Below, piece by piece: positions 6,075 to 31,141 of a DNA stretch of 31,467 bases; the first letter of the stretch is position 1; every line of letters starts with the position of its first letter. The notes beneath the pieces were generated by a model, which had not been told where the DNA came from, did not search any database, and saw only the letters and a program-made list of their open reading frames with translations. A program made the position numbers and the translations under genes. The stretch spans positions 1-31,467 of the forward strand of contig JAHLWH010000219.1 of assembly GCA_019058015.1 (NCBI GenBank). Reading direction: 5' to 3'. This DNA comes from Promethearchaeota archaeon (GTDB lineage: Archaea; Asgardarchaeota; Lokiarchaeia; Sigyniarchaeales; SOKP01).

Positions 6075-7772
6075 TTAGACAAAGTAAGATGCTAAATATA
6101 TAGATGTACCGATTATAGTCGCAATAATTATTATTATAATAAATAATAACCTTAAAAGTAAAGTTTTTTTAAGTGGTTTTGATAATACTGCTTTAAAATT
6201 AAACTTTTCTCGAGATTTTAAAGTTACTGGTATGTAATAATTTATTGTAGAAGTCTTAAATTTTACTTGGTCTAATGGAACACATAAGTATATAAAAATC
6301 AGACAGCATACAACGACCATAAAAATTGTACTGATAACAGAATCAAGAATTAAAACTGTTGATGTTGCTAGAGCCCAACTTTGTGTTATTTGTAAAGAAA
6401 TAAAGAATAACAATCCCGGGATGGCAGCTACATCAAAAAAATCTAATTTTCTAAATTGCTTAGCAAGTTTTAGCTCAGTGGGTTTGTATGTGCGAATTTT
6501 GAAGAATTTATAACGAAATTTTCTTTGAAATTTTAAAATCTTATCGGAATCATTACATTCGATTAGATCACCATTAACATTACTAAAATCCTGCGAAATT
6601 GCTCTTATAACTAAAATTGAACCGAAAATGATTGAAAACCACCAATAAAGAGTGCCAAATAAAATAAAAAAATTCCACATTACAACAGAAGTAGCAATAA
6701 AGAAAATCCCCAAAATGAGGTTAGTATAAGAACGGTGAGTTGTACTAATTTGATTACTTTTCATAAATTCAGAAATTTCTTCTTTTTTCATAGAACATTC
6801 AAAAACTTCTGATATATCCTCGGTTATGGGATCTATTTCTTTTAATCTTATTTTAGATTTCTCAGGCTCAAACCACATTTCATATAAATCATCCTTGGTT
6901 GCAATTTCAAAATAATGCTGAGGAGTTAAAACCAAAAAGAACAAAGCAAAACACTCCATAATAGCTGAAAAAATTAATAAGATTCCCTGAATTGGGTTTT
7001 CTAATCTTGGAATTGCGGACATGTTTATGAGATAAAAACCTTCAATAAATGATAAAACGATAAAAGGCATTAACAGCACCACCCAAATAAGTTTAGGTCC
7101 TAAGTGGTTGTTTTGATACCGTAATGCTTCAATATCTTTTTTAAGAATTTTTGTAGTCCATGGAGAAGTAGGTCTAAATTCATGAAAATACAAATTATTT
7201 TTAGAATTTGAAAAGACACCTCGAAAAGAGCTTATCATTACATACAAAAATAAACCGATCCCAAAAAGACTGGGAAAAAGACCAACAGTATAGAAATAAG
7301 AAGGACCACCTAAAACTATTGCTTGACCGAATGGAGCCGAGTGGTGAGAAAGACCTCCAGTTAAAATGAATAGATCTACAAAACCCAAAATAAGGAATAA
7401 TAATGAAGCAATTAATCTGCTAAATGCAAATGAATAAAATCTTATGGATTTTTCTGGTTTCTCATTAACTTCGAAAAACTTATCCAAATAATAAGAAACT
7501 ATGTGCGGTTTGGGAACTCTCATTATTGTAATCTTTATACACAAAAATAAGCCAAAACCAAATAAAACCCACCCAAGAATGAAAGCAACTTCAAAATCAA
7601 TACCTGCATCTATAAATTCTACAGTATAACTTAGAACAATTATAAAGAAACCAAGAATTAATAAAAATGCTCCTAAGATAAGAATTATTAAAATTAAACG
7701 TCTTGGTTTCTCATATAATTCTTTAATTATATCAATCTCAACGGTTTGGTTTCTCTCTTCCATCTTAACCAT
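6075..7772 (-). CDS. Hypothetical polytopic membrane protein (565 aa), apparently internally duplicated
   Basis: About 11 hydrophobic segments alternating with beta-rich soluble stretches; no family recognised. Confidence 0.8.
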   Translation of the reverse strand: MVKMEERNQTVEIDIIKELYEKPRRLILIILILGAFLLILGFFIIVLSYTVEFIDAGIDFEVAFILGWVLFGFGLFLCIKITIMRVPKPHIVSYYLDKFFEVNEKPEKSIRFYSFAFSRLIASLLFLILGFVDLFILTGGLSHHSAPFGQAIVLGGPSYFYTVGLFPSLFGIGLFLYVMISSFRGVFSNSKNNLYFHEFRPTSPWTTKILKKDIEALRYQNNHLGPKLIWVVLLMPFIVLSFIEGFYLINMSAIPRLENPIQGILLIFSAIMECFALFFLVLTPQHYFEIATKDDLYEMWFEPEKSKIRLKEIDPITEDISEVFECSMKKEEISEFMKSNQISTTHRSYTNLILGIFFIATSVVMWNFFILFGTLYWWFSIIFGSILVIRAISQDFSNVNGDLIECNDSDKILKFQRKFRYKFFKIRTYKPTELKLAKQFRKLDFFDVAAIPGLLFFISLQITQSWALATSTVLILDSVISTIFMVVVCCLIFIYLCVPLDQVKFKTSTINYYIPVTLKSREKFNFKAVLSKPLKKTLLLRLLFIIIIIIATIIGTSIYLASYFV

Positions 7773-7804: not shown

Positions 7805-9343
7805 TTAACTTGAAGGTGGTGGAATAATTCCATAAGCACGCCCCATCCAATAAACACAGTTATACACTCGACCATCTCCTTCAGTTAAACTATTCGCTTG
7901 GCGCCCACCATCTTCCTCAAATGGATTGTCACCCCAGAAATTGCCAGGATCATAATACATCATGTCAACAGTGGCAGGTTGCATCCAGAGCTCATCGGTA
8001 AAATCAATTTCAAGTGCAATAGGTGCATATAGAAAGCCCAATGGTCCATTCAGAATTTGATTCCATTTTTCTGGTGCTGGATTCTTCGTATGCCATGAGG
8101 GGCGTTCTGTTGCATTGAAGTTTATATAACCTCCCTTGCCCCATTCAACATTCTCTTGAAAACGCATTAATTGATCAAAAATATCATTACGAATTGTTTG
8201 GTTTTTATCTCCTGTCCAAACAAGATATATCATATTAAAAAACGCATTACGATGATATCTTATGAGCGGATAAGTGCCTTGAATATATTCATTAATAAAA
8301 AATTGCTTTAAGTTAGGATCTTGTGTGGTCATAATTAGATTGAAGAGGTCCATGTGTCCAAAATTCCATCCGTAATATTCTTCAATTATATTGAAATTTG
8401 AACCCTCTCCGATGCCATTCATATACATATTTTTTGTTGCGTAATAATGCCATAAATCATCATAAACACCAGGATACGCTATTCGACCCAAATTTAATAA
8501 TGATAAAACCCATTCTCCTGAGCCTAAGGTGGCTTTTAAGTCAGTTCCGCAGGGATTTCCATCTCCTCCAATAACCAACCAATTAGTTTTTCTAAATCCC
8601 TCTATTAATTGAGCAATTAATAATTTTACACGTTCTTGTACCCACGGGTCATCACATAACTGAAGTGCACGTCCCAGACCAAATAAATATCCCCCCATTT
8701 CATCTTTGGAAGTGTATAATCTACAACGCCAGTTTTTATAATCACCGGAACCATTAAAATGTCTTACATGGGGGCTTAGCATCCAATTGGTGACATGTTC
8801 ATATCCTGGAATATTTTTATGCTCAGGAGCCCAATAAAATCTGGCTGGAATTCCCGGATAATCAGGGCCAATTCCACCATTTGGAACAGCGAGCATATAA
8901 GAGAATCCGGTTAGTAATCCCTTTATTATTCTCAATGCATCTTCCATCATTGTTATATTGCCTTCATCTTTTGCTGCTTTGTATTTAAAGCAATAAGTAG
9001 CTAGTGACGTTCCAGTTGATAACCCAGCATTATCGGTGGAATGGTAATATGCAGGAGTCGTGTAATTATAATCTGTAAATGTAATTGTCAAGGATAAATT
9101 TGAAGCCATATGAAACTGTTCAAATCGATCATCTATTTTTGCAGCCCATTGAGCCATTTTATTAAAATCTGGCTCAATAAAATCAGTTGTATTTAACCCG
9201 ATTGTATAAGTAAAGGAGGCTAGGTCATCAATAATATAAAACACACCACCAACATATCCCAAAAATGAACCAAATGGGAGAAAAAATAACAATACTACAA
9301 GTAAATTATGTCGTTTTAAATGTTTTTTTGATCGAATTCTCAT
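7805..9343 (-). CDS. Secreted or membrane-anchored hypothetical enzyme (512 aa), possibly an alpha/alpha-barrel glycosidase-like fold
   Basis: N-terminal basic plus hydrophobic signal/anchor; Trp/Tyr/Gly-rich; motifs TDNAGLSTG, TSKDEMGG and HRNAFFNMIY. The fold is an inference. Confidence 0.7.
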   Translation of the reverse strand: MRIRSKKHLKRHNLLVVLLFFLPFGSFLGYVGGVFYIIDDLASFTYTIGLNTTDFIEPDFNKMAQWAAKIDDRFEQFHMASNLSLTITFTDYNYTTPAYYHSTDNAGLSTGTSLATYCFKYKAAKDEGNITMMEDALRIIKGLLTGFSYMLAVPNGGIGPDYPGIPARFYWAPEHKNIPGYEHVTNWMLSPHVRHFNGSGDYKNWRCRLYTSKDEMGGYLFGLGRALQLCDDPWVQERVKLLIAQLIEGFRKTNWLVIGGDGNPCGTDLKATLGSGEWVLSLLNLGRIAYPGVYDDLWHYYATKNMYMNGIGEGSNFNIIEEYYGWNFGHMDLFNLIMTTQDPNLKQFFINEYIQGTYPLIRYHRNAFFNMIYLVWTGDKNQTIRNDIFDQLMRFQENVEWGKGGYINFNATERPSWHTKNPAPEKWNQILNGPLGFLYAPIALEIDFTDELWMQPATVDMMYYDPGNFWGDNPFEEDGGRQANSLTEGDGRVYNCVYWMGRAYGIIPPPSS

Positions 9344-9533: not shown

Positions 9534-10313
9534 GTGTTTTTTCAAGAGATTAGTCAGCTGGCTCACATTTCCGGGATAACTGCATTTATATCTATTTTGG
9601 TGGCATTTCTTTTAGCGGGGATAATATTAGGTAAAGCAATTAAAGAAAAATCTCGAATTTTATTTGAATTTTCTTTTTGTGTTGTTTTTACAATATCACC
9701 ATGGTTCCCCTCAGGTGTGGGTTATTTATATTTTTTGATTACAGGAGTACATCTCCCATATGAGATCTATATAATTATCGGAAATTTATTCCTACCCTTT
9801 GCAATTATGTTTTGGCTTGATATTTATCTTACTACAGTTAGCCCAAGTAGAAGAAAGTTAATCTTAAGTATATATATTATATTCTCAATAATTTTCTGGA
9901 TATATGCTTTCTATTTCATATATTTTTCTCCACATGCTCCTGTTGAAGAGATGTTAGGAATAATAGATGACCCGACAAATCCATTTGATATTGATTACAA
10001 AGGGTTTGTTTTAGTGTATTTAGCAACTAGTATATTTACATCATGTGCAACCGGCTTTCATTTTGCTGCAAAATCTTTAAAAATAGAAGATAAAGAAATT
10101 CATTGGAAGGGGAGATTTTTATTAATCGCATTTTTATGCTTCGGAATAAGTGCTATCGCAGATTCAGTTATTCCAATGATTGAGATTTCATTGGTGATTT
10201 TCAGAATAGTATTAATTTTAGCAAATTTGTTTTTCTATATTGGTTTTATTCTGCCTAAGTGGATAAAAAAGATTATCTTTCGTGAGGATAAAACCCAAAC
10301 CAGTGGAGTATAA
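9534..10313 (+). CDS. Stand-alone 7-TM membrane protein (HisKA_7TM-like sensor topology)
   Basis: Seven hydrophobic helices, C-terminal YIGFILPKWIKK, GTG start. Confidence 0.75.
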   Translation: MFFQEISQLAHISGITAFISILVAFLLAGIILGKAIKEKSRILFEFSFCVVFTISPWFPSGVGYLYFLITGVHLPYEIYIIIGNLFLPFAIMFWLDIYLTTVSPSRRKLILSIYIIFSIIFWIYAFYFIYFSPHAPVEEMLGIIDDPTNPFDIDYKGFVLVYLATSIFTSCATGFHFAAKSLKIEDKEIHWKGRFLLIAFLCFGISAIADSVIPMIEISLVIFRIVLILANLFFYIGFILPKWIKKIIFREDKTQTSGV

Positions 10314-10410: not shown

Positions 10411-10785
10411 ATGCGACTAAATAAAAAATTTCAAAAAGAATTTCAGGATTACGATTTTTCCCCGATAAAAGAAAAGAAGATATTTTTAGTAGGTTCAGCA
10501 AGAGTTCGTGATTATTTCATTAAGATTGAGTCAATCTTACAAATAAAATATAAAAAATTAGTTTCTATTGCCTCGGTGGATGGGCTCTTGAATAAAGATA
10601 TGTTTTCAGAAGATGAATGGGAAATTTTACAAGAGATTGCCTTATCTAAATTAAAAGATCAGGAAGCAATTTTAGTTTTAGATATAAACGGTTACATTGG
10701 AGATCATACAAAACAAGAGATAAAATTCTTTCAGAATGAAATACATAGACCTATTTATTATTTTTCACGATTAAGAATTCCTTAA
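10411..10785 (+). CDS. Nucleoside 2-deoxyribosyltransferase-like (DUF4406-like) small protein
   Basis: IFLVGS.R...KL...EAILVLDINGYIGDHTKQEI...RPIYY resembles the GS.R / GYIGEST..EI / KPI.Y pattern of this fold. Confidence 0.6.
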   Translation: MRLNKKFQKEFQDYDFSPIKEKKIFLVGSARVRDYFIKIESILQIKYKKLVSIASVDGLLNKDMFSEDEWEILQEIALSKLKDQEAILVLDINGYIGDHTKQEIKFFQNEIHRPIYYFSRLRIP

Positions 10786-10896: not shown

Positions 10897-11652
10897 TTGA
10901 TGATTAAGGATATTTTTATTATAAAGGATGGAGTTCCCCTCTTAACTGAGCAATGTCCAAAAGTAAATGGAATCCTAAGTAATAATGATAATGCACTTAT
11001 GATTTCTGGGTTTTTCTCAGCCTTGGATTCTCTATCGGACCAATTTCAAGATTTTGGAAATATTAGTGAATTAAAATTATCTAATGATATGAAATTATCT
11101 TTTATGAGGGACCCCAAAATTGATAATTTAATCTATATAGCATCAACAGATACAAAAAGTGATGAGAAATCAGTTAAAAAAATATTAAAAAAAATATCCT
11201 CTTCATTTTCAAATAAATATAATGCAAATATGTTAGAAAAATGGAGTGGTAAGCGAGCTGATTTTAAAGATTTTAAAGAAGAATTAGAAAAAATTTATAA
11301 TTATGATGATAATTTGGAAGAGTCTAATAGCAATCAAGTTATAGAAGAAAAACCGGTTATTCAGAAAAATCACGAAGAAAATAATGATGAAAACAATTAT
11401 AAACAAGTTATTGAAGTAAAAACTCCCTCTAAAAAAAATCCCTTTTCAAATGCAAAACCAATATTAAGAATTAAATCAAATTCAAATCCAGAACGGTTTT
11501 TAACAGGGGAAAAGGCAAAAAAGATATTTAAGGAAATAAATGGAAATAATAATATTGCGAATATTGCTCAAAAATTACAATACGATGAGGTAGAGGTTTT
11601 TAATATATGTAAAAATTTCATAAAAATGGGGCTAATCGCTTTTTCCATGTAA
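10897..11652 (+). CDS. Longin/roadblock-like domain protein with acidic linker and C-terminal winged helix
   Basis: IKDIFIIKDGVPLL...LMISGFFSAL...ISELKL...LIYIASTD is the Asgard longin pattern. C-terminal IFKEINGNNNIANIAQKL..DEVEVFNICKNFIKMGLI is wHTH-like. Confidence 0.75.
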   Translation: MMIKDIFIIKDGVPLLTEQCPKVNGILSNNDNALMISGFFSALDSLSDQFQDFGNISELKLSNDMKLSFMRDPKIDNLIYIASTDTKSDEKSVKKILKKISSSFSNKYNANMLEKWSGKRADFKDFKEELEKIYNYDDNLEESNSNQVIEEKPVIQKNHEENNDENNYKQVIEVKTPSKKNPFSNAKPILRIKSNSNPERFLTGEKAKKIFKEINGNNNIANIAQKLQYDEVEVFNICKNFIKMGLIAFSM

Positions 11653-11675: not shown

Positions 11676-14600
11676 TTAAATACTACCATGAATTGGTATA
11701 ATATATCTAAAATCTATTAGATCATATGTATTAGCAACTATTTCTTCCTTCGATTTTTTAGGTAAGGCTGAAATTAAGTAAGTTAATAATTTACTGATAA
11801 AAAATGATTTGTAATCTATTTCTAATGTCTTGGCTAAAGAAATTATGTTTTTCTGAAGGAGATTTAATTTTATTCTATGTGGATTTTTATTTACAATGTG
11901 AGGAAAAGATAAATTCAATTTTAATACTTGATTAATAAGTTCCATATGATCACTGAAAGGTCTAAGATCACCAGAGAATACTTCTAAATATTTTTCGTAT
12001 TTTTTCTCAAATTCTTCAATAAATTGCGAAACTAATATCTTTAGATTCTCTGAAGGTTCAGATCTTAATGTTAATGCCAATCGAATAAATTTTCCATCTT
12101 GAAGAAAAATAATGTAATCTTGGTAATCTATTTTAAAACCACCCGTAGATTCTTCCAATTTAGCACCTGGCTTTAATGCATATTTGAATTGTGTAATTGC
12201 TTGAAGGAAACCACTCACTAAAGTACCATCAAATTTAATTTGTCCAAATTCCTTCGTTATTAAACCAAGGCCACTTAATTTATGGATAACTATTAAATAT
12301 TCAATGTTCAGTATATCTGAAAATTTATTAGTTTTTTCGTACCAAATTTGTTTTCTCTTCTTTTTCCTTGAACTTTTTACAATAATATAAGAGGCAATTA
12401 CTAATAAAAAGCCTGCAATAAAAGGAATCAAAAGTAAAAATTCTAAAATAAATTGCTCTGTTGTTGATCTAACATCTATATTCACTATATTGGTACTTGA
12501 GTTTCTATTTTTAATAGTTCCGTCGAAAAGAACTTTTATTTCTAATGAATCAACTTTTCCTATAATATGGTGTACAATAGCATATCCATTGCTATCAGTA
12601 ATTGTGGGAATGTTAATAATTAATAAATCTCCATTCTCAGAGATTTCTATTATTTGAAAAATAATTGTTTCATTTGCTAATGGATTTTCTCCAGATTTTA
12701 AAATCACTTCAATTTCAATCAAATCGTCCCAAACATAAAAATCCTTTAAATTATTAAGTAATTCTAAACTACTATTTTCTTTTTTCAATACAGTTATAAT
12801 TATTGATGCTTCTACTGGTGTGTAGTCAGAAGCATTCATTTCAATTTTAACTTCATATATTCCTGGATTTAAATTACCAAGATTTAAAGTTCCTTGATAC
12901 CACCCAAAATTTGAGACTACTGGTATAAATTCGTCAGAATATGGAATAAATCCTTCGATTTTCATCCTAACTTGTGCTCCTAAAATGTCTTGTTGTCGAA
13001 AAGTGTCTTTTAATATAACAATTAAATCGAGATCTTGTTCTTGATATAGAGTTATATTATGAAAATCCTCGGGAATTTCAATATATGAAGGATACGGATG
13101 AATATAGACAGATCTTTCCTCAAAATAAGGATTAAATTTAATTTTTGTTATAGTAATATTAAATTTATATGTTTCATAAATATTGAGATTGGTGGAATCT
13201 AAAAAGAGCTTGAAAATGCCAGGCTCAGTCAAAGCAAAACTCAATTTATTTTCTCCCAGATAAGCATTTATTAAAGCTGTTTCAATTGGACCGTAAGCAT
13301 ATGAGAGATTGAGAATTACACTTTTACTCAGGTCATTTGTATAAACGACGGGAATCGGATCAAGATCAACATTAAAATCTGCTGGTATAAATGTCAGATT
13401 ATAATTTATACTTGATTCATTATAAGTAATATTACTTTCACGAGCTTTGCTAGCTTTTATGGTTAAATTATAATAACCAATATCTAAATAATCTAAAAGA
13501 AAAGTGATATTGTATCTATTTGGTATTTCTGAAACAATATATGCACAAGAGGAAATTAAATCAGTCCCATTATTAATTATAAATTGTCCATTAGTTAGAT
13601 TTTCTTTTTGAGCTGTGCTTTCATCATAGAATCTCACGCATACAAATGGAGTATCTCCATATATAACATTTTGGGGTGAATGTGAAAGAATTGTTAAATT
13701 AGTAATATGCGGTGGGTTAGATAATTTGAATGTATCATTTTGATTAACTTCTAAATAACTTCCAATTTTTATCGCATAAAATTCAATAGTTAAATTTTCC
13801 AATTCTCTACCATCAAATAATATTTCAGTTAATAATGTGATATCATAGTTTCCATCATTATGATCAAAAATATTATAAGCTATATCACTTATGGATTGCC
13901 TTCCACCATTTTCTGCTGAAAAATTTACCCAAATTGAAAAATCAACATCAGAAACACTTTCATTAGTAATAGAATCATTTAAGTAAATATAGTAAGTAGC
14001 ATAATCTCCTAAGACAAATATTCTATTTTCTTTATTAGCTCCAGTAATTGTCATATTAAGGGATCTACATTTGATATTTAAAGTTGAATTATACGTATAA
14101 CTATAGAAATACATATTTTCTGCTGTAAAGTTAATAAGATAATCTCCAGCAGGTAAATCAGGTTGGGTTGTATCAATTGTTATATTTAATAATCCCGTAT
14201 TTATTGAATCGATGTAATAATGCTTATATTCCGATAATGACCTCCAAGTGCCAGAGGTGGAATTTATTTGAACGATTAAATCGTCTAAATCTAATGATTC
14301 ATTATTATATGAATTATTTACAGAAAAGAGATAAGAAGCAAAATTATTTTTATAAACTGAAGAATCAGATTCTAATAATATCATATTCATTTGAGATAAG
14401 GTTACATTAAATGCTAATGTTTCAATTCCTGCCATAGTGCCATTATTAGAATGAATTTGTAATCTAATTTGTGTATTATTTTCTTTCGCACCAGTATCCT
14501 GATCAGGGCGCCATATAGGAAAGAAAAAATTACTTTCAGTAATATTATCTTCAAGTATTACATCTAATACAGAAGTATATATATACATTGAAGTAGCACC

Positions 14601-16055
14601 ATTGGAATTATTAAATTGAACAGAAACTTTTATATAATCCGTTATATTAGCAAAATTCACAATATTAATCCATGTTTGATTATTATTACTTGATTGGATT
14701 TGAGTGCTTAAAATTGCATTAGTTTGATTGAAGGTGCATCTCCAGTTATTGTTTGAGATATTAAGAAGATCAATAAAATTTGGATTAACAATAACTTCAG
14801 CATCGTTAAATAACACACTTTCATTATAGGTGCAATTATATCTCCAGAATTTAGGTTTATAAAAACGTGCAGTATTATTTCGAGAATCACTTGGAAATTG
14901 ATTAATAAATAAAGTTGAATTCCAAAAGATGTCTTTTCCAACTGTCGCATTAAAAGTAGAATTAGATTTTGTATTATATTTAAAATTTCCTAAAAAGGAT
15001 ACATTATATTTTACCTCATTAAACCATAATGAAGATATTGGAATGTGAAATTGATTATTTTCGTTTGGAAAAAAGGCTTGATTATGATAAATTCCTGAAG
15101 AATTAACTGGTGTGCCAAATACGGTTAAATTTATTTGATCTGGTGTTGGTGCGTTGGTTAATGGAGCTAAATTTACTTTGAGTAAGCCATTTTTTCCAGT
15201 TTGTTCAATCCATGAATCACTTAAGGGAATTCTTTTATAAAAAATATTTTCATATTGATCATTTGGTTCTTCGAAAGCATAGAAAATAAAACCCTGTTTT
15301 TTTATAAATCCAATATCTGGAACATTGATTGCATGAAATACAGCAAAAAAGGTATTGTTAACTGTTTTAGAAATATTTAAAATCACGTTCGTATAATTTG
15401 CTTGATACCATCGAGCTGGTTGTTGATATTGTTTATTTGTTAAATCAAAAGTGAAATTATCATAAACATCATCTAAAGCCTCATTTGGAACTATTTTACT
15501 GTCTTCATCAATAGTAGCATTATAAATCCTAATAGTAAATTTGGAATCTTTTATTATTGATAGAATTCCTCCCGGATATTGAATAAACATTGAGATATTT
15601 CTAACATAACATGAATTTGGAATTTCAAATGATGAGGAATAATAATAGTCAGTATCATCAAATTCATCAGTATCACCACTTCTTATTTCAAAGGGAATAT
15701 ATTTTTCAGTAGTATATAGACTTGTAAAATTTAACTCAAAATTTGTCATATTCCAACCTGGAAAGGAATTAGAGATTATAATACCAGCATCTTCAGTAGT
15801 TTGATTTATAAAAGTGAAATTTCTAGAGGAATAGAGAGAGACATTTTGAGAAAGACCCACATCGACAAAAGAACCTTGGCCAATTTCGGCAGAATTTTTA
15901 AGTTTCTGACCATAGGAATCTTCATATATAATTTCATTATTATCTGATTTTAAATCATTTCCAAATAGAGTAAGATCTGAAATAACTATTTGAAAAATTG
16001 ATATAGTAACAATTAAACAGCCTAAAAATATTATACACTTATTATTTTTCCTCAA
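11676..16055 (-). CDS. Large single-pass surface glycoprotein (beta-sandwich ectodomain) with cytoplasmic longin-like domain and short wHTH-like tail
   Basis: Signal peptide, about 1170 aa of beta-rich sequence with dozens of N-x-S/T sequons, a TM helix followed by KSSRKKKRK, then IEYLIVIHKLSGLGL...DGTLVSGFLQAITQF. TTG start. Confidence 0.8.
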   Translation of the reverse strand: MRKNNKCIIFLGCLIVTISIFQIVISDLTLFGNDLKSDNNEIIYEDSYGQKLKNSAEIGQGSFVDVGLSQNVSLYSSRNFTFINQTTEDAGIIISNSFPGWNMTNFELNFTSLYTTEKYIPFEIRSGDTDEFDDTDYYYSSSFEIPNSCYVRNISMFIQYPGGILSIIKDSKFTIRIYNATIDEDSKIVPNEALDDVYDNFTFDLTNKQYQQPARWYQANYTNVILNISKTVNNTFFAVFHAINVPDIGFIKKQGFIFYAFEEPNDQYENIFYKRIPLSDSWIEQTGKNGLLKVNLAPLTNAPTPDQINLTVFGTPVNSSGIYHNQAFFPNENNQFHIPISSLWFNEVKYNVSFLGNFKYNTKSNSTFNATVGKDIFWNSTLFINQFPSDSRNNTARFYKPKFWRYNCTYNESVLFNDAEVIVNPNFIDLLNISNNNWRCTFNQTNAILSTQIQSSNNNQTWINIVNFANITDYIKVSVQFNNSNGATSMYIYTSVLDVILEDNITESNFFFPIWRPDQDTGAKENNTQIRLQIHSNNGTMAGIETLAFNVTLSQMNMILLESDSSVYKNNFASYLFSVNNSYNNESLDLDDLIVQINSTSGTWRSLSEYKHYYIDSINTGLLNITIDTTQPDLPAGDYLINFTAENMYFYSYTYNSTLNIKCRSLNMTITGANKENRIFVLGDYATYYIYLNDSITNESVSDVDFSIWVNFSAENGGRQSISDIAYNIFDHNDGNYDITLLTEILFDGRELENLTIEFYAIKIGSYLEVNQNDTFKLSNPPHITNLTILSHSPQNVIYGDTPFVCVRFYDESTAQKENLTNGQFIINNGTDLISSCAYIVSEIPNRYNITFLLDYLDIGYYNLTIKASKARESNITYNESSINYNLTFIPADFNVDLDPIPVVYTNDLSKSVILNLSYAYGPIETALINAYLGENKLSFALTEPGIFKLFLDSTNLNIYETYKFNITITKIKFNPYFEERSVYIHPYPSYIEIPEDFHNITLYQEQDLDLIVILKDTFRQQDILGAQVRMKIEGFIPYSDEFIPVVSNFGWYQGTLNLGNLNPGIYEVKIEMNASDYTPVEASIIITVLKKENSSLELLNNLKDFYVWDDLIEIEVILKSGENPLANETIIFQIIEISENGDLLIINIPTITDSNGYAIVHHIIGKVDSLEIKVLFDGTIKNRNSSTNIVNIDVRSTTEQFILEFLLLIPFIAGFLLVIASYIIVKSSRKKKRKQIWYEKTNKFSDILNIEYLIVIHKLSGLGLITKEFGQIKFDGTLVSGFLQAITQFKYALKPGAKLEESTGGFKIDYQDYIIFLQDGKFIRLALTLRSEPSENLKILVSQFIEEFEKKYEKYLEVFSGDLRPFSDHMELINQVLKLNLSFPHIVNKNPHRIKLNLLQKNIISLAKTLEIDYKSFFISKLLTYLISALPKKSKEEIVANTYDLIDFRYIIPIHGSI

Positions 16056-16335: not shown

Positions 16336-16632
16336 TCATTTTTTTTTCTTTTTGGCTTTCACATCTTTTTCTTTTGCAAGAATAGCCTCTTCCATAGACT
16401 CATTAAGTTCTTTTGATTTTCCTTCTAATCTAAATTTACCAAAAATCTTACTTTCCTCTCTCTGCCCAGATGTTGAAATTTTTTCAAATGTTAAAGTAAC
16501 ATCTCTCTCGTTCTTAAGAGCATAATTAACGAAGTTTATAAATCCAATATGTTTACTGGGAGCAATATTAAACTTTATTGATGAATCTTTTCCTTTCTTG
16601 TTTTTTACTTTTAAAACTAGCCTTAACTTCAA
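16336..16632 (-). CDS. Small basic hypothetical protein (98 aa)
   Basis: Well-formed beta/alpha ORF with Lys-rich tail, divergent from TBP, TTG start. Confidence 0.75.
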   Translation of the reverse strand: MKLRLVLKVKNKKGKDSSIKFNIAPSKHIGFINFVNYALKNERDVTLTFEKISTSGQREESKIFGKFRLEGKSKELNESMEEAILAKEKDVKAKKKKK

Positions 16633-17019: not shown

Positions 17020-17676
17020 ATGAATAAAAATTCCGGAAATAAAAAATTAAAAGTAATAGATGAATGGGACGGCTATGATTATGTTGCTAATTTGACATAT
17101 AAAATTGAAAATGTTGTTGGGACAGTAGTTTCAGATATTATCGAGCCAGTTGATTTGAATCTAATTGCACGCCATGATGAAAATGTTCAATACAATCCTG
17201 AAAGATTTCCGGGGTTAGTTATGAGAATTGAAAAGCCGCGTGGTACCGCATTGATATTTTCTACAGGAAAAATGGTTATTACTGGTCTTAGAGCAGCATC
17301 TGAAGCAGATAAAGTTGTTCAAAAAATTATCAAAAATATAAAGAAAGTGGGAATAGAGATAAAAAATCCGGTAATAACCGTTCAAAATATTGTAGCGAGT
17401 GGGGATCTCCATACAAATATTGATTTAAATATGGCAACTGTCGTAATGGACGATGCGATGTATGAACCTGAGGTTTTCCCTGGATTAATTTATAGAATGA
17501 AAGATCCAAAAACAGTATTTCTTGTTTTTTCAACTGGAAGAATTGTCTGTACCGGGGCAAAAACCAAATTAGCAGTTCGGAAAGCTGTTCTTAAATTAAA
17601 CAAGTATGTTCGAGAGATTGGAATTGCTAAGAAGAATTTGGAACCATATGATTATGATGAATTTGATTTTCTCTAA
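17020..17676 (+). CDS. tbp: TATA-box-binding protein
   Basis: Two TBP repeats: IENVVG...YNPERFPGLVMR...LIFSTGKMVITG and VQNIVAS...YEPEVFPGLIYR...LVFSTGRIVCTGAK. Acidic tail. Confidence 0.98.
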   Translation: MNKNSGNKKLKVIDEWDGYDYVANLTYKIENVVGTVVSDIIEPVDLNLIARHDENVQYNPERFPGLVMRIEKPRGTALIFSTGKMVITGLRAASEADKVVQKIIKNIKKVGIEIKNPVITVQNIVASGDLHTNIDLNMATVVMDDAMYEPEVFPGLIYRMKDPKTVFLVFSTGRIVCTGAKTKLAVRKAVLKLNKYVREIGIAKKNLEPYDYDEFDFL

Positions 17677-17679
17677 CTA

Positions 17680-17693
17680 TTTTTTTTTTTTTT
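17680..17693 (+). terminator. Oligo-T archaeal terminator after tbp
   Basis: T14 run 4 nt after the stop codon. Confidence 0.6.
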
Positions 17694-17820
17694 AAGTTTT
17701 CTTTTTAATACTTTAAGATTTATTATAAAATAATTTTATTAATATATTACATTGAGTAAAATATTTAATAGAGATTGACAATAATATTAGTTGAATTAAT
17801 TATTAAAACTGATTAGAAAC

Positions 17821-18612
17821 ATGTCTTCAAAAATTTTCTCATACTTATTGAAAAATAATCAATGGATAAAGTCTGATGCGATTTCCATTGATGATGTCAC
17901 AGTTTTAGTGGATACTAGAAGAGATATCATTTGGTATTTAGAAGGAGAAAAAGCTACAGCAAGAACAAAATTTGATGCTAGAGGGCTTTTAGGAGAATTG
18001 AAGAAAAAGTATATACCATATAAATTTAAAAAAATAGATAGTAGAGCCCCCATTGATGTTTTACACAAAATAGAGGAATTGAAGAAAAGCACTTCACATC
18101 TAAGTATGAAATTTAGAGGTAAAGAGATTCAAGAATTTTCAAAATACTTGTATTCTTTAAATATTGTTGCTGGAATATTACAAATAATTGGCATGATAAT
18201 AATCACATGGGCACTTTCTTGGCCCCAGATTTATGATTCTCAATCTTATTTGAATTATATTATTAATTCTAATCACTTTTACTTATATATAGAATTAGAT
18301 TCACTATTACTCTTTTTCTCCTTGATAATTTTTATATTTACATCATTTTTTGGAATAATTTTAAGAAGAAAAATATTCACTACGAGTTCAATATTTTTAG
18401 CAGTAATAATATTTTTATCATTAGTATATATTAGAATTGGACCTACATTATTATATTTTCAGGCCACCACACCTTTTCCCAATATTTTAATACGACTAGA
18501 TGCTTTTTTATTTTTCATTATTGGAGTAGATATTATATTATTAATATCTATTGTGGGCTCAGTTATCCCAGGAACATATTGGTTAATAAAGAAGAATATT
18601 AAAAAAATTTAA
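17821..18612 (+). CDS. Membrane protein: N-terminal gelsolin-like domain plus 4 TM helices
   Basis: DDVTVLVDTRRDIIWYLEGEKATARTKFDA resembles the gelsolin repeat core; four hydrophobic helices in the C-terminal half. Confidence 0.6.
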   Translation: MSSKIFSYLLKNNQWIKSDAISIDDVTVLVDTRRDIIWYLEGEKATARTKFDARGLLGELKKKYIPYKFKKIDSRAPIDVLHKIEELKKSTSHLSMKFRGKEIQEFSKYLYSLNIVAGILQIIGMIIITWALSWPQIYDSQSYLNYIINSNHFYLYIELDSLLLFFSLIIFIFTSFFGIILRRKIFTTSSIFLAVIIFLSLVYIRIGPTLLYFQATTPFPNILIRLDAFLFFIIGVDIILLISIVGSVIPGTYWLIKKNIKKI

Positions 18613-18645
18613 GATTTCATTTAAGTTATTTTTAAATGTAAAATA

Positions 18646-19278
18646 ATGCCATCAAAATTTCGATTACGCTACATTTTTAGACCGCTAATTAATAAGTTAG
18701 CAAAAATATTAGGAAGAATTGGTCTTACTCCGAATTATGCAACTGCAATTATGCTCATTTTATCTTTTTTTTGTTTTATTTTTCTTACTGTTTTGAAAAT
18801 TGAATGGCTATTTGGGATTTTTGTTTTTTTAGTAGGTATTTTCGATGGAGTAGATGGCGCAATTGCAAGATTTTTGAAAAAAGAATCAAAATTTGGAGGA
18901 TTTTTGGATTCAATTGCTGATAGATTCTCCGAAATTATAATTTTCTTAGCAATTTTACTCTATTTTGAGAACCAAAAATTTTGGAATTTGATTGAAATTA
19001 ATTTTATTATTTACATTTCATTGGGAGCCTCCCTTCTTATTAGCTATGCTCGAACACGAGCACAAAATAGTTCTCCAGGAGATTATGATATAGGATTAAT
19101 GGGACGATCTGAAAGATTATTTTTTATCTCAATATCTTCTATTTTAGGGTGGCTTTGGGAGTGCCTTCCCATATTTATGATATTAACGGTTAGCACGGCC
19201 ATTTTTAGATTAGTTAAAGCCTATTTAATCATTAAAAAAGAAGAATTTTTAAAATCTAACTCGAATAGTAAATTCTGA
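18646..19278 (+). CDS. CDP-alcohol phosphatidyltransferase (archaetidylinositol phosphate synthase/PgsA-like)
   Basis: LTPN, DGVDGAIAR....SKFGGFLDSIADR, ISYARTRA and GLMGRSER. Confidence 0.95.
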   Translation: MPSKFRLRYIFRPLINKLAKILGRIGLTPNYATAIMLILSFFCFIFLTVLKIEWLFGIFVFLVGIFDGVDGAIARFLKKESKFGGFLDSIADRFSEIIIFLAILLYFENQKFWNLIEINFIIYISLGASLLISYARTRAQNSSPGDYDIGLMGRSERLFFISISSILGWLWECLPIFMILTVSTAIFRLVKAYLIIKKEEFLKSNSNSKF

Positions 19279-19473: not shown

Positions 19474-20004
19474 ATGCGAGATGCCGTTTTCAAGATGTTT
19501 ATTTGTGGAGAGGGTGGTGTAGGGAAGACTACATTAACTAATCGATATGTTACAGGGATTTTTAAAGACCAATCGATGACTATTGGACTTGATTTTTACC
19601 TCAAAGATGTTGAAATTGAAGGTAGAAAGGTTTCTCTACAAATATGGGATTTTGCTGGTGAATCACGTTTCAGAGCTTTAATTGGTGGTTATGTGAGAGG
19701 AGCTACGGGAGGAATTTTCATGTATGACATCACAAGATATTCTACTTTAATAAATATAGATGAGTGGTTAGACATAATTCATCGTAATTTAAAGGATAGT
19801 TATAGTGATATTCCTATTATTTTAGTTGGGGGAAAAGCAGATTTAGATGAAATTAGATCTGTAACTAAAGAAGATGCAATAGAGGTTGGAAAGTCACGAC
19901 ATCTATACGGATTTATTGAATGTTCCTCTAAATCCGGTCAAAATGTTGAATCAGTATTTACAAGCTTAGCACGTGCAATGATGGAAAATGCTAATTTAAT
20001 TTAA
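19474..20004 (+). CDS. Rab-like small GTPase (Ras superfamily)
   Basis: G1 GEGGVGKT, G2 MTIGLDF, G3 WDFAGE, G4 GGKAD, G5 CSSK. Confidence 0.95.
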   Translation: MRDAVFKMFICGEGGVGKTTLTNRYVTGIFKDQSMTIGLDFYLKDVEIEGRKVSLQIWDFAGESRFRALIGGYVRGATGGIFMYDITRYSTLINIDEWLDIIHRNLKDSYSDIPIILVGGKADLDEIRSVTKEDAIEVGKSRHLYGFIECSSKSGQNVESVFTSLARAMMENANLI

Positions 20005-26399: not shown

Positions 26400-26942
26400 T
26401 TACATTTGAGATTCCTCAAGACACCTTCTAGCGATAAATTGAAAGGCTTTCTCTACATTCTCGCCTGTCTTCGCTGAAGTTTCCAAATATTCACACTTTA
26501 AGCGCGTTGCCAATTCTTCACCTTCTTCATTACTAACTTTACGCTCTAGATCAATTTTGTTCCCAAGCAATATCATTGGGATTTCCTTATTTACTGATTT
26601 ATTAATTGAGCTAACCCAACCTGGTATTTTCATTAGAGAGTCGGAACTAGTAACGTCATAGACTCCTAAAGCGCCATTTGAACCCTTAAAGTAAATTCGT
26701 CTTAGCTTTTGAAATTGAGCTTGACCTCCTATATCCCACAAGAGGAGTCTTACTTTCTTATTGTCGATATTAACATCTTTGATAAGGAAATTACTGCCAA
26801 TGGTCTTTTTGAGATCTTCATTAAAGGTTTTTTTTATGTAGCGCAACAGAAGACTAGTTTTGCCAACTCCTCCCGCTCCAAAAAGAGTGATCTTATATTT
26901 ATAAACTTCATCTGATTGTTCTAAAATTTTAAATCCCTCCAA
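26400..26942 (-). CDS. Rab-like small GTPase (Ras superfamily)
   Basis: G1 GAGGVGKT, G2 TIGSNF, G3 WDIGGQ, G4 NKID, G5 TSAK. TTG start. Confidence 0.95.
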   Translation of the reverse strand: MEGFKILEQSDEVYKYKITLFGAGGVGKTSLLLRYIKKTFNEDLKKTIGSNFLIKDVNIDNKKVRLLLWDIGGQAQFQKLRRIYFKGSNGALGVYDVTSSDSLMKIPGWVSSINKSVNKEIPMILLGNKIDLERKVSNEEGEELATRLKCEYLETSAKTGENVEKAFQFIARRCLEESQM

Positions 26943-27118: not shown

Positions 27119-27586
27119 ATGTTGGCATCATTACTTTCAAAGGCTAAAGAGGTAAATTATTTCTCTTATATAGGTGTAATTGGTGGGATATTTGTCATTT
27201 TATCAGAATTTTTACCATGGTTTAGTGATAATAATTTAATTTTGATATATTTTTTATCCCCATTTGACCCTGATGCATTTGTGTATTTCTTTCCTCTTAT
27301 GTCAGGGGTCATCTGCCTTTTCGGAAGCATTTTATATACAATTCGTCAAGATTTAAAGATCAATTCTATTATAATCCAATTAATTGGCTTGGGGTTTAAC
27401 ACAATATTCATTTTAAATTTTATAGTAAATCAAATGGCGTTTATTTTAACAATTCAGCTTGGATTTTATTTTTTCATAGTTGGATTTTCATTAATTTTTA
27501 TTGAGATTATTGTTAAATTGACTTGGAAAGAAGAGATACCGGCAAACCAAATAGAAGAAAGAAAAAATACCCAAATCGAAGAATAA
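27119..27586 (+). CDS. Hypothetical 4-TM membrane protein
   Basis: Four hydrophobic helices, FLPWF motif, LGFYFF near the C-terminus. Confidence 0.75.
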   Translation: MLASLLSKAKEVNYFSYIGVIGGIFVILSEFLPWFSDNNLILIYFLSPFDPDAFVYFFPLMSGVICLFGSILYTIRQDLKINSIIIQLIGLGFNTIFILNFIVNQMAFILTIQLGFYFFIVGFSLIFIEIIVKLTWKEEIPANQIEERKNTQIEE

Positions 27587-29789: not shown

Positions 29790-29923
29790 TATTAATTATT
29801 GAAAAGCTCACATATCAAAATAAAATGAATAAGGATATATTTTATAAATAATAAGAGGATATAAAAATCTATAAAAAAATCTAACAAAAAAAATCTAACA
29901 AAAAATTATGGATATTGATTGAA

Positions 29924-31141
29924 ATGCCTTTTTTTGAACAAGAAGAAGTGCAGAAAATTAGATTTCTGCATTTTACTATTAAAAAATTAGAGGAGAAGTT
30001 GAAAAATGACGAAGATTTTACAATCGATGAATTAAACAATATTTTAGATTATACTATGATACTAAACAAGAATTATGGAAATATAAATCACTTGAGAATC
30101 TTAAATGAAATGGATATTACGAAAGACTATATTGATCCATTAGAAAATAAGCCAATCCAAATAAGAGACCTATATTTTGAATGTGCCCGTGTATTAGAGG
30201 TATTGGGGCAAGGGTATGAGAAATTATCACAAAAAAGAGAAGAGGAAGATTTCCCAGAAGATGCAATAATTTCAATGCTAGAAAGTAGTAAAATTTTAAA
30301 GGCATCTGCATACTTTTCAGCTGCAGCTATGCATCAAAATTACAAGGGAAAATCATTACTTTCATTAAATTTAGAGATAAAATCTGAAGAAGCACGCTTG
30401 TTTGCGCAAAGTATTTCTGCTCTTAATGAAGAAATGAAGGGAAATTTAATATTTGCTTCCAAATTATATGCTGGATTAAGTGCTTTATCAAAAAGAATTT
30501 TTTATTTGAAGGAACATGATGAAATTAAGAAAAACCAATTAAGAGCACAAATGCATTTTGATATGGGAAAAGCATGTACATTAGTTGTTGAAGTTGCCTT
30601 GGATTACAGCATAGATGAACATCGAGTAGAAAACCTCAAACAAAAAGCATACTTCTATTTTAATAAAGCAAAAGAGATTTGGGAAGAAATGATTAATACA
30701 ATCCTAAATTTGAAAGTAGAGGAGATACAAAATATTAAAGATAATATTACTGTATCAGATGATATTTTAAAAGAAATAAAAATCGAAGAACTTCCTTATG
30801 AGAAAATTAAAAAGATCCAAGATCCAGAACCTGTTATTATTATCCCGGAAAATCTTGCACCTTTTGTACCTAAGGCGACTATTTACTTATCTAAAATAGT
30901 TCCTAAAGATCTAAATATTACAAGGTTCAAAAAATTCAAAAATAAGAAAATCGAGAAAAAAACATCATATTCAGAACAGGAGGAATTAGGCAGCCAAAAA
31001 TTCGGAATTTCCAGAACGATATTAGAACTAAAAAAAATGAAGAAAGAAGGAGAAATTAGTTTAGAAAATTACACCAAACTATATGAAAAATATAAAAATA
31101 AACTTAATGAAATTGAAACGAAGATAAAAAATTTGAAATAA
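29924..31141 (+). CDS. All-helical hypothetical protein, possible Bro1/TPR-like domain with C-terminal coiled coil
   Basis: Helical solenoid-like pattern (LYFECARVL...AQ...ASKL) and a C-terminal GEISLENY helix pair. The ORF track starts at TTG 29915. Confidence 0.6.
   Translation: MPFFEQEEVQKIRFLHFTIKKLEEKLKNDEDFTIDELNNILDYTMILNKNYGNINHLRILNEMDITKDYIDPLENKPIQIRDLYFECARVLEVLGQGYEKLSQKREEEDFPEDAIISMLESSKILKASAYFSAAAMHQNYKGKSLLSLNLEIKSEEARLFAQSISALNEEMKGNLIFASKLYAGLSALSKRIFYLKEHDEIKKNQLRAQMHFDMGKACTLVVEVALDYSIDEHRVENLKQKAYFYFNKAKEIWEEMINTILNLKVEEIQNIKDNITVSDDILKEIKIEELPYEKIKKIQDPEPVIIIPENLAPFVPKATIYLSKIVPKDLNITRFKKFKNKKIEKKTSYSEQEELGSQKFGISRTILELKKMKKEGEISLENYTKLYEKYKNKLNEIETKIKNLK

Follow-up and report, generated by a model that had tools for sequence, protein, structure and literature searches.

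The stretch of DNA analysed here (the window) comprises 31,467 nucleotides of a Promethearchaeota archaeon (contig JAHLWH010000219.1 of assembly GCA_019058015.1), and at 17821..18612 on the forward strand it carries a gene whose predicted product joins a gelsolin-like domain to four transmembrane helices. The open reading frame (ORF) starts with ATG, encodes 263 amino acids and has homologues, which shows that it is a real gene. Comparisons at the level of profiles and predicted folds support the assignment of the N-terminal ~90 residues to a divergent gelsolin/cofilin-type domain, nearest to the ProGel type of Asgard archaea. The combination of this known domain family with a four-helix membrane domain is an architecture for which we found no description in eukaryotes or archaea. 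Together, the sequences and the structural models make this conserved Lokiarchaeal membrane protein a good candidate for tying the actin skeleton to the membrane.

Asgard archaea build actin-filled protrusions and crawl (PMC9834061, PMC13716822). The relevant passages on their actin regulators deal with profilins and gelsolins, all of them soluble, and do not explain what links the filaments to the membrane. A conserved family of gelsolin-membrane fusions would offer a concrete and testable candidate for such an attachment, and the gelsolin superfamily would gain a new architecture.

The initial annotation of this DNA had proposed a gelsolin-like N-terminal domain, and this is borne out by a family profile, by the predicted fold and by a fold search, with the caveat that the cutoff of the Pfam gelsolin model PF00626 is not reached. 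The motif string that it had placed at residues ~20-65, ISIDDVTVLVDTRRDIIWYLEGEKATARTKFDARGLLGEL, corresponds to residues 21-60 of the protein. When a profile of 34 family sequences (alignment A2) was compared with PDB sequences, with E-values calibrated against 177,635 of them, it matched villin (9jus_v, E 8.8e-12), six repeats of which fell on query residues ~15-62, and Thorarchaeota ProGel (7c2f_B, E 3.4e-7), which aligned as a single stretch (query 18-73, chain 24-79). Weaker matches were found to 2DGel3 (E 0.011), Loki 2DGel (E 0.02), gelsolin, CapG, severin and adseverin. In addition, sub-threshold matches to PF00626 itself (E 0.003-0.05, 13.8-17.7 bits) were seen in four of 33 homologues, all of them at the N-terminus (residues ~3-67) and all aligned to the same portion of the Pfam model.

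The predicted fold points in the same direction. An AlphaFold2 model of the full protein built on alignment A2 has a mean predicted local distance difference test (pLDDT) score of 90.8 and a predicted template modelling (pTM) score of 0.69. It contains strands at residues 5-11, 14-17, 26-31 and 36-41, a long helix at 47-63, a strand at 68-71 and a helix from 78 onwards; this beta-beta-beta-beta-alpha-beta-alpha order is the one found in gelsolin. The predicted structure agrees with the gelsolin/cofilin fold, in which a mixed sheet at the centre packs on a long helix and a shorter second helix is added. A Foldseek search of the model against the PDB returned ProGel 7c2f_B at the top (E 8.3e-5, 78 columns, 18% identity, template modelling score 0.68 when normalised to the target), with gelsolin G4-G6, adseverin and villin right behind it. 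There were 18 matches at E<=0.001. Apart from one low-quality match to chain G of 4pkg, with a root-mean-square deviation of 22, every match listed was either a chain of the gelsolin family or segment 1 of gelsolin bound to actin.

The family consensus for this region reads LF-Y......W.E...L...DIAL..D.....IY..EG..S..R....A...LG.LK.KY..YKF.......P, and the positions conserved across the family are Y8, W15, D25, D31, G42 and A53, with D31 and G42 each retained in 31 of the 34 members. The residue two places before G42, where gelsolins carry the Trp of the WxG motif, is Trp in 13 members, Tyr in seven, Phe in seven, Leu in five, His in one and Arg in one. After this motif, the window protein has Arg48-Thr49 at the positions that, by our own reading of the motif spacing, are Asp-Glu in gelsolin, and we take the Asp-Glu pair of gelsolin G1 to be the counterpart of Arg48-Thr49. 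This substitution suggests that the domain lacks calcium control, like ProGel.

The rest of the protein consists of four hydrophobic segments at about residues 109-133, 153-181, 187-210 and 226-253 (Kyte-Doolittle scan, window 19), in agreement with the four transmembrane helices of the initial annotation. The predicted layout of the gene and its product, all on the forward strand, is as follows.

17821..18612 (+), stop codon included: whole gene, gelsolin-domain/four-helix membrane protein of 263 amino acids (ORF list, homologues, AlphaFold2 model with mean pLDDT 90.8)
17821..18051 (+): residues 1-77, core of the gelsolin/cofilin-type domain (AlphaFold2 secondary structure, profile and Foldseek matches, sub-threshold PF00626)
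18052..18144 (+): residues 78-108, second helix of the gelsolin domain, predicted to extend as a stalk helix into transmembrane helix 1 (AlphaFold2 model, DSSP)
18145..18219 (+): residues 109-133, transmembrane helix 1, in to out (hydropathy, models)
18220..18276 (+): residues 134-152, outside loop 1, a predicted beta-hairpin, acidic and with few Lys/Arg (models, charge counts)
18277..18363 (+): residues 153-181, transmembrane helix 2, out to in (hydropathy, models)
18364..18378 (+): residues 182-186, short cytoplasmic loop 2 with RRK (charge counts)
18379..18450 (+): residues 187-210, transmembrane helix 3, in to out (hydropathy, models)
18451..18495 (+): residues 211-225, outside loop 3, a predicted hairpin ending at the conserved R225-x-D227 motif (models, alignment)
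18496..18579 (+): residues 226-253, transmembrane helix 4, out to in (hydropathy, models)
18580..18609 (+): residues 254-263, short basic cytoplasmic tail with KKNIKKI (alignment, charge counts)

In the AlphaFold2 model, the helix at residues 78-133 is unbroken according to DSSP, with a fall in pLDDT to 57 at residues 91-100. The second helix of the gelsolin domain thus runs directly into the first transmembrane helix, a feature common to both models. Modelled alone from a 40-row alignment, the membrane part reached a pLDDT of 92.6 and a pTM of 0.85 and showed four long helices with beta structure within both outside loops. Its conserved residues include W134 (21 of 34 members), R225 (19 of 34) and D227 (23 of 34). 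A Foldseek search of this domain alone against solved structures gave no matches at E<=0.001; the best was cytochrome oxidase subunit 3 (E 0.16), followed by designed helical bundles. Claudin/TARP, tetraspanin and MARVEL proteins likewise have four transmembrane helices, termini inside and beta structure in the outside loops, which is what we predict here, but none of these types gave a significant structural match; TARP chains were found only at E of about 0.55 and a probability of 0.13-0.15. We also considered whether the first helix-hairpin-helix unit is duplicated in the second, an idea that was not supported (hhalign probability of 15%).

The orientation in the membrane can be predicted from the distribution of charges over the 34 sequences.

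Loop 1, between transmembrane helices 1 and 2: 22 K/R and 70 D/E
Loop 2, between transmembrane helices 2 and 3 (5-8 residues): 68 K/R and 1 D/E
Loop 3, between transmembrane helices 3 and 4: 24 K/R and 37 D/E
C-terminal tail: 274 K/R and 161 D/E

Under the positive-inside rule, this bias predicts that both termini lie inside, with the gelsolin domain and loop 2 also on the cytoplasmic side. A Kyte-Doolittle scan of the window protein found no N-terminal signal or hydrophobic segment ahead of residue 109. The cytoplasmic N-terminus that the initial annotation had put forward as a check on its proposal is thus the one predicted from the charges of the 34 members. The four-helix domain itself may be a mere anchor, but, because it is conserved and has two structured outside loops, a role of its own is also suggested, for example contact with the S-layer or with a partner.

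The fusion is a conserved feature of a whole family. A word-indexed search of 5.8 billion proteins returned 13 that are 36-100% identical to it. When 1.84 billion representatives were searched exhaustively with phmmer, 33 matched at E<=0.001, and a profile search added 11 further members. Among the phmmer matches were three fragments (P0021, P0023 and P0025) and one spurious protein (P0045), and these make up the four of the 56 retrieved proteins in which the fusion was not kept. The remaining 52, all of at least 206 amino acids, combine the N-terminal domain with hydrophobic helices, with four hydrophobic peaks in 47 of them and three in five at the chosen threshold. Twelve of the 52 had not been used in building the N-terminal profile, and each of these is matched by it at E<=2e-25. 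The most distant members share about 18% identity with the window protein, so the fusion is old within the group. The phmmer search returned only the protein's own family from the 1.84 billion representatives and no soluble gelsolins, which indicates that the family is separate and divergent. Regarding P0045 (2379 aa), five of its stretches match query residues 17-75, and it therefore seemed to be a multi-repeat relative, but the N-terminal family profile does not find it even at E<=10. Since it is also rich in Glu, and has a CBM_21 domain, we rejected it as a false positive caused by composition.

All members that carry a name are annotated as "hypothetical protein" and come from archaea of the Promethearchaeota or Candidatus Lokiarchaeota; no precomputed Pfam domains were present among them. 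The nearest ESM Atlas cluster (score 0.94) has 73 members, 100% of them Archaea, with Promethearchaeota the most frequent group. Four related genome loci were also found, all in metagenome-assembled genomes of Promethearchaeota or Promethearchaeia; the search for these used a 12-sequence alignment and patterns of the closest subfamily, and its reach is limited to close relatives. Distant members of the family carry cytoplasmic C-terminal tails of 40-140 residues, and the window protein has no such tail. Four of these tails (P0033, P0034, P0035 and P0039) share a K-P-S/T-I/L-L-R/Q-D motif (A2 columns ~315-345), which, judging from the alignment, might be a further short binding motif.

In eukaryotes, gelsolin-family proteins are built from three to six repeats and occur in soluble form or peripherally at membranes, under the control of calcium and phosphatidylinositol 4,5-bisphosphate (PIP2). 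The repeats of gelsolin, villin, adseverin, CapG and severin (PF00626) have the same domain fold and motif as the window domain, and we know of no eukaryotic member of the family with transmembrane helices. In Asgard archaea, the relevant sections of Akil et al. 2020 (PMC7444086) describe three architectures, namely ProGel, 1DGelX (in which X is a predicted coiled coil) and 2DGel, and those of Akil et al. 2022 (PMC9433394) describe 2DGels with linker and zinc-binding extensions. The characterised Asgard gelsolins in these sections are soluble, as the initial annotation had stated. ProGel of Thorarchaeota (PDB 7C2F, PMC7444086), the best match both by the family profile and by Foldseek, has a single gelsolin domain, as does the window protein, and the two share an IY-x-W/aromatic-x-G ... 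A ... Y-P-x-Y-K/R pattern in the HMMER alignment with the window family. ProGel, however, is a soluble protein of about 90 residues, whereas the window protein continues through the stalk helix into four transmembrane helices. As described in the corresponding sections of PMC7444086, ProGel was crystallised on rabbit actin, at a site common to gelsolin G1 and cofilin, has no calcium sites and alters filament organisation at high concentration.

The 1DGelX layout is also shared to some extent, since both proteins have one N-terminal gelsolin domain (about residues 1-90 in the window protein) and a non-gelsolin C-terminal extension, here the stalk and membrane domain. The difference lies in the extension: domain X of Thor 1DGelX is a predicted coiled coil, and the protein was handled as soluble in the experiments described in PMC7444086, whereas the extension of the window protein is a predicted four-helix integral membrane domain. 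For 1DGelX genes, PMC9433394 gives a count of two for MK-D1 and of three for GC14_75, and these Loki counts may already include members of the membrane family without comment. The word "transmembrane" is absent from the main text of PMC7444086 and from that of PMC13716822 (2026, crawling motility), and the supplementary tables of the latter give lists of gelsolin InterPro/asCOG identifiers with no transmembrane form. The section of PMC13716822 on these proteins reports that L. ossiferum has nine gelsolin-homology proteins, five of which were enriched in Lokiactin co-immunoprecipitation. Full-text literature searches, judged by title and abstract and not extending to PDF supplements or asCOG annotation tables, found no description of a membrane-anchored or transmembrane gelsolin in Asgard archaea or eukaryotes; the nearest phrase match was work on PIP2-bound gelsolin.

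We propose that the protein is an integral membrane protein of Promethearchaeota (Lokiarchaeota-type Asgard archaea), with one ProGel-type domain facing the cytoplasm and the last helix of that domain continuing as a stalk into the first of the four transmembrane helices. The tethered domain would bind Lokiactin, as a monomer, at the filament side or at the barbed end, through the cleft that is used by ProGel, cofilin and gelsolin G1, with the outcome that actin would be held or regulated at the inner face of the membrane. Tethering a weak binder to the membrane could raise its local concentration, allowing it to hold monomers, filament sides or filament ends. By analogy with its closest relatives, actin is the partner that we favour, if only modestly. 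It is a more tentative proposal that this protein is the first integral-membrane member of the gelsolin superfamily and that it acts directly on Lokiactin filaments at the plasma membrane by nucleating, capping or holding them, and here our confidence falls short of even. If this were true, the protein could be a primordial membrane-cytoskeleton linker behind the actin-filled protrusions, and its outside loops might couple filaments to the surface layer or to the substrate in an adhesion-like role.

Several observations weigh against this proposal. The window protein taken alone gave no PF00626 match at E<=1 in a Pfam scan and, more broadly, matched no Pfam and no NCBIfam family in single-sequence scans; likewise, none of the 33 homologues reached the 21-bit gathering cutoff of PF00626. 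A smaller family profile of 12 sequences had Thor 2DGel3 as its sole gelsolin match among PDB sequences, at an insignificant E of 3.3. In the window protein, Leu40 takes the place of the Trp expected in a canonical WxG motif, two residues ahead of the conserved G42, just as the initial annotation had read it in calling the domain divergent. With a pTM of 0.69, the orientation of the domains in the full model is less certain, and the topology has the positive-inside rule as its single basis. Finally, ProGel, the closest solved relative, binds rabbit actin weakly, with a Kd of 337 uM in the binding data of PMC7444086.

An important question is whether the domain binds actin at all. It could have the gelsolin/cofilin fold and instead serve in the cytoplasm to contact or regulate some partner other than actin, like the gelsolin-like domains of the Sec23/Sec24 type, with the four-helix domain carrying the main function, for example as a small transporter, as a channel or in lipid handling. 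We regard this as the main rival, but as less likely than actin binding. In its favour, the membrane domain is conserved and has outside hairpins, an R-x-D motif and a pLDDT of 92.6, which goes beyond the needs of a bare anchor, only 13 of the 34 members retain the WxG Trp, and the legend to Fig. 4 of PMC7444086 names Sec23a among proteins of the gelsolin fold for which actin binding had not been demonstrated. Nevertheless, the nearest proteins both by profile and by predicted fold are actin-binding gelsolins, with Asgard ProGel first, and Sec23/24 chains are absent among the profile and Foldseek matches listed. The four-helix domain, in turn, has no significant match to a solved transporter or channel (best E 0.16).

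Another possibility comes from the gene that follows. The initial annotation had noted that the gelsolin-membrane gene lies 33 nt upstream of an inositol-phospholipid-synthase-like gene, and we find a spacer at 18613-18645 and the start of the next gene at 18646.

18646..19278 (+): CDP-alcohol phosphatidyltransferase, archaetidylinositol-phosphate-synthase-like, neighbouring gene given as context (Pfam, NCBIfam, solved relatives)

This protein passes the Pfam CDP-OH_P_transf cutoff of 22 with 61.9 bits, and its best match among 11 NCBIfam CDP-alcohol transferase models is archaetidylinositol phosphate synthase NF040950 (128.8 bits, E 2.1e-37), for which it stays below the equivalog cutoff of 180 bits; its closest solved relatives are phosphatidylinositol(-phosphate) synthases. 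Eukaryotic gelsolin is regulated by PIP2. The gelsolin domain might similarly be regulated by the product of the downstream enzyme, or recruit it, an addition to actin binding at the membrane that we consider improbable. The established PIP2 regulation of eukaryotic gelsolin (PMC6080781) counts in its favour, as does a conserved basic and aromatic stretch just past the long helix (L60-K61-x-K63-Y64-x-x-Y67-K68-F69). The short spacer does so as well, together with the gene order, since the gelsolin-membrane gene is followed by the transferase in all four related loci, including one with 53% identity (L004), where the adjacency is kept even though the TBP (TATA-binding protein) and Ras genes are missing from the block. 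However, all four loci belong to Promethearchaeota relatives and share a larger conserved block of genes of housekeeping type, among them those for orf98 (a 98-residue ORF), PhoU, PHO4, riboflavin kinase and a cytidylyltransferase. The order may thus be inherited, and an adjacency that sits in such a block is weak evidence of a functional link. The spacer also holds a T5 run and a TATA-like sequence, which would allow separate transcription, and the enzyme stays under the NCBIfam equivalog cutoff. Co-transcription of the two genes is possible. Thus, of the phosphoinositide link put forward in the initial annotation, the adjacency to a synthase-like gene is real, whereas the regulation, which draws on that adjacency, stands weakly.

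An extracellular position of the domain, or a likeness to gelsolin that arose by chance in some unrelated membrane protein, would fit the negative single-sequence Pfam scan, but is very improbable given that residues 1-108 contain neither a signal nor a hydrophobic segment, that the charge bias is strong and consistent, and that the profile E-values of 3.4e-7 and 8.8e-12 find independent agreement in the fold search.

With regard to the other neighbours of the gelsolin-membrane gene, the TBP gene lies upstream (17020-17676), and a T14 run at 17682-17695, immediately 3' of its stop codon, is plausibly an archaeal terminator between the two genes. A scan for sigma-70-type promoters and terminators found 33 sites, with 31.4 expected, and is unsuited to archaea and uninformative. 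Downstream, the order is the CDP-alcohol phosphatidyltransferase, a Ras-family small GTPase, a PhoU_div protein and a PHO4 phosphate transporter. The GTPase gene (19474-20004 (+), Pfam Ras E 1.5e-43) starts 195 nt 3' of the transferase and is kept in three of the four related loci. A second Ras-family GTPase is encoded elsewhere in the window, at 26400-26942 (-) (Pfam Ras E 2.5e-51).

Further observations concern the surroundings of the gene in the related loci. At 6412-7710 (+) of L004 there is a 432-aa ORF that matches both the transferase (66% over 208 aa) and the PhoU_div protein (68% over 213 aa), which in the window are separate genes with the Ras GTPase gene between them; it is apparently a gene fusion or an assembly artefact. 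The Lys-rich ORF of 98 aa (orf98) at 16336-16632 (-), which has no Pfam match at E<=10, is present in all four related loci (68-96% identity), and in L004 it is found directly upstream of the gelsolin-membrane gene in divergent orientation.

Seven other ORFs of the window, of 124-565 aa, had no Pfam match at E<=0.001 (6075-7772, 7805-9343, 9534-10313, 10411-10785, 10897-11652, 27119-27586 and 29915-31141). Finally, the ORF at 11676-16055 (-) encodes a protein of 1459 aa that is rich in N-x-S/T sequons and has one hydrophobic stretch around residues 1180-1241, followed by a cytoplasmic tail of roughly 220 aa with no Pfam match at E<=10; from its sequence, it resembles a large glycoprotein of the cell surface or S-layer type that also has an inside domain.

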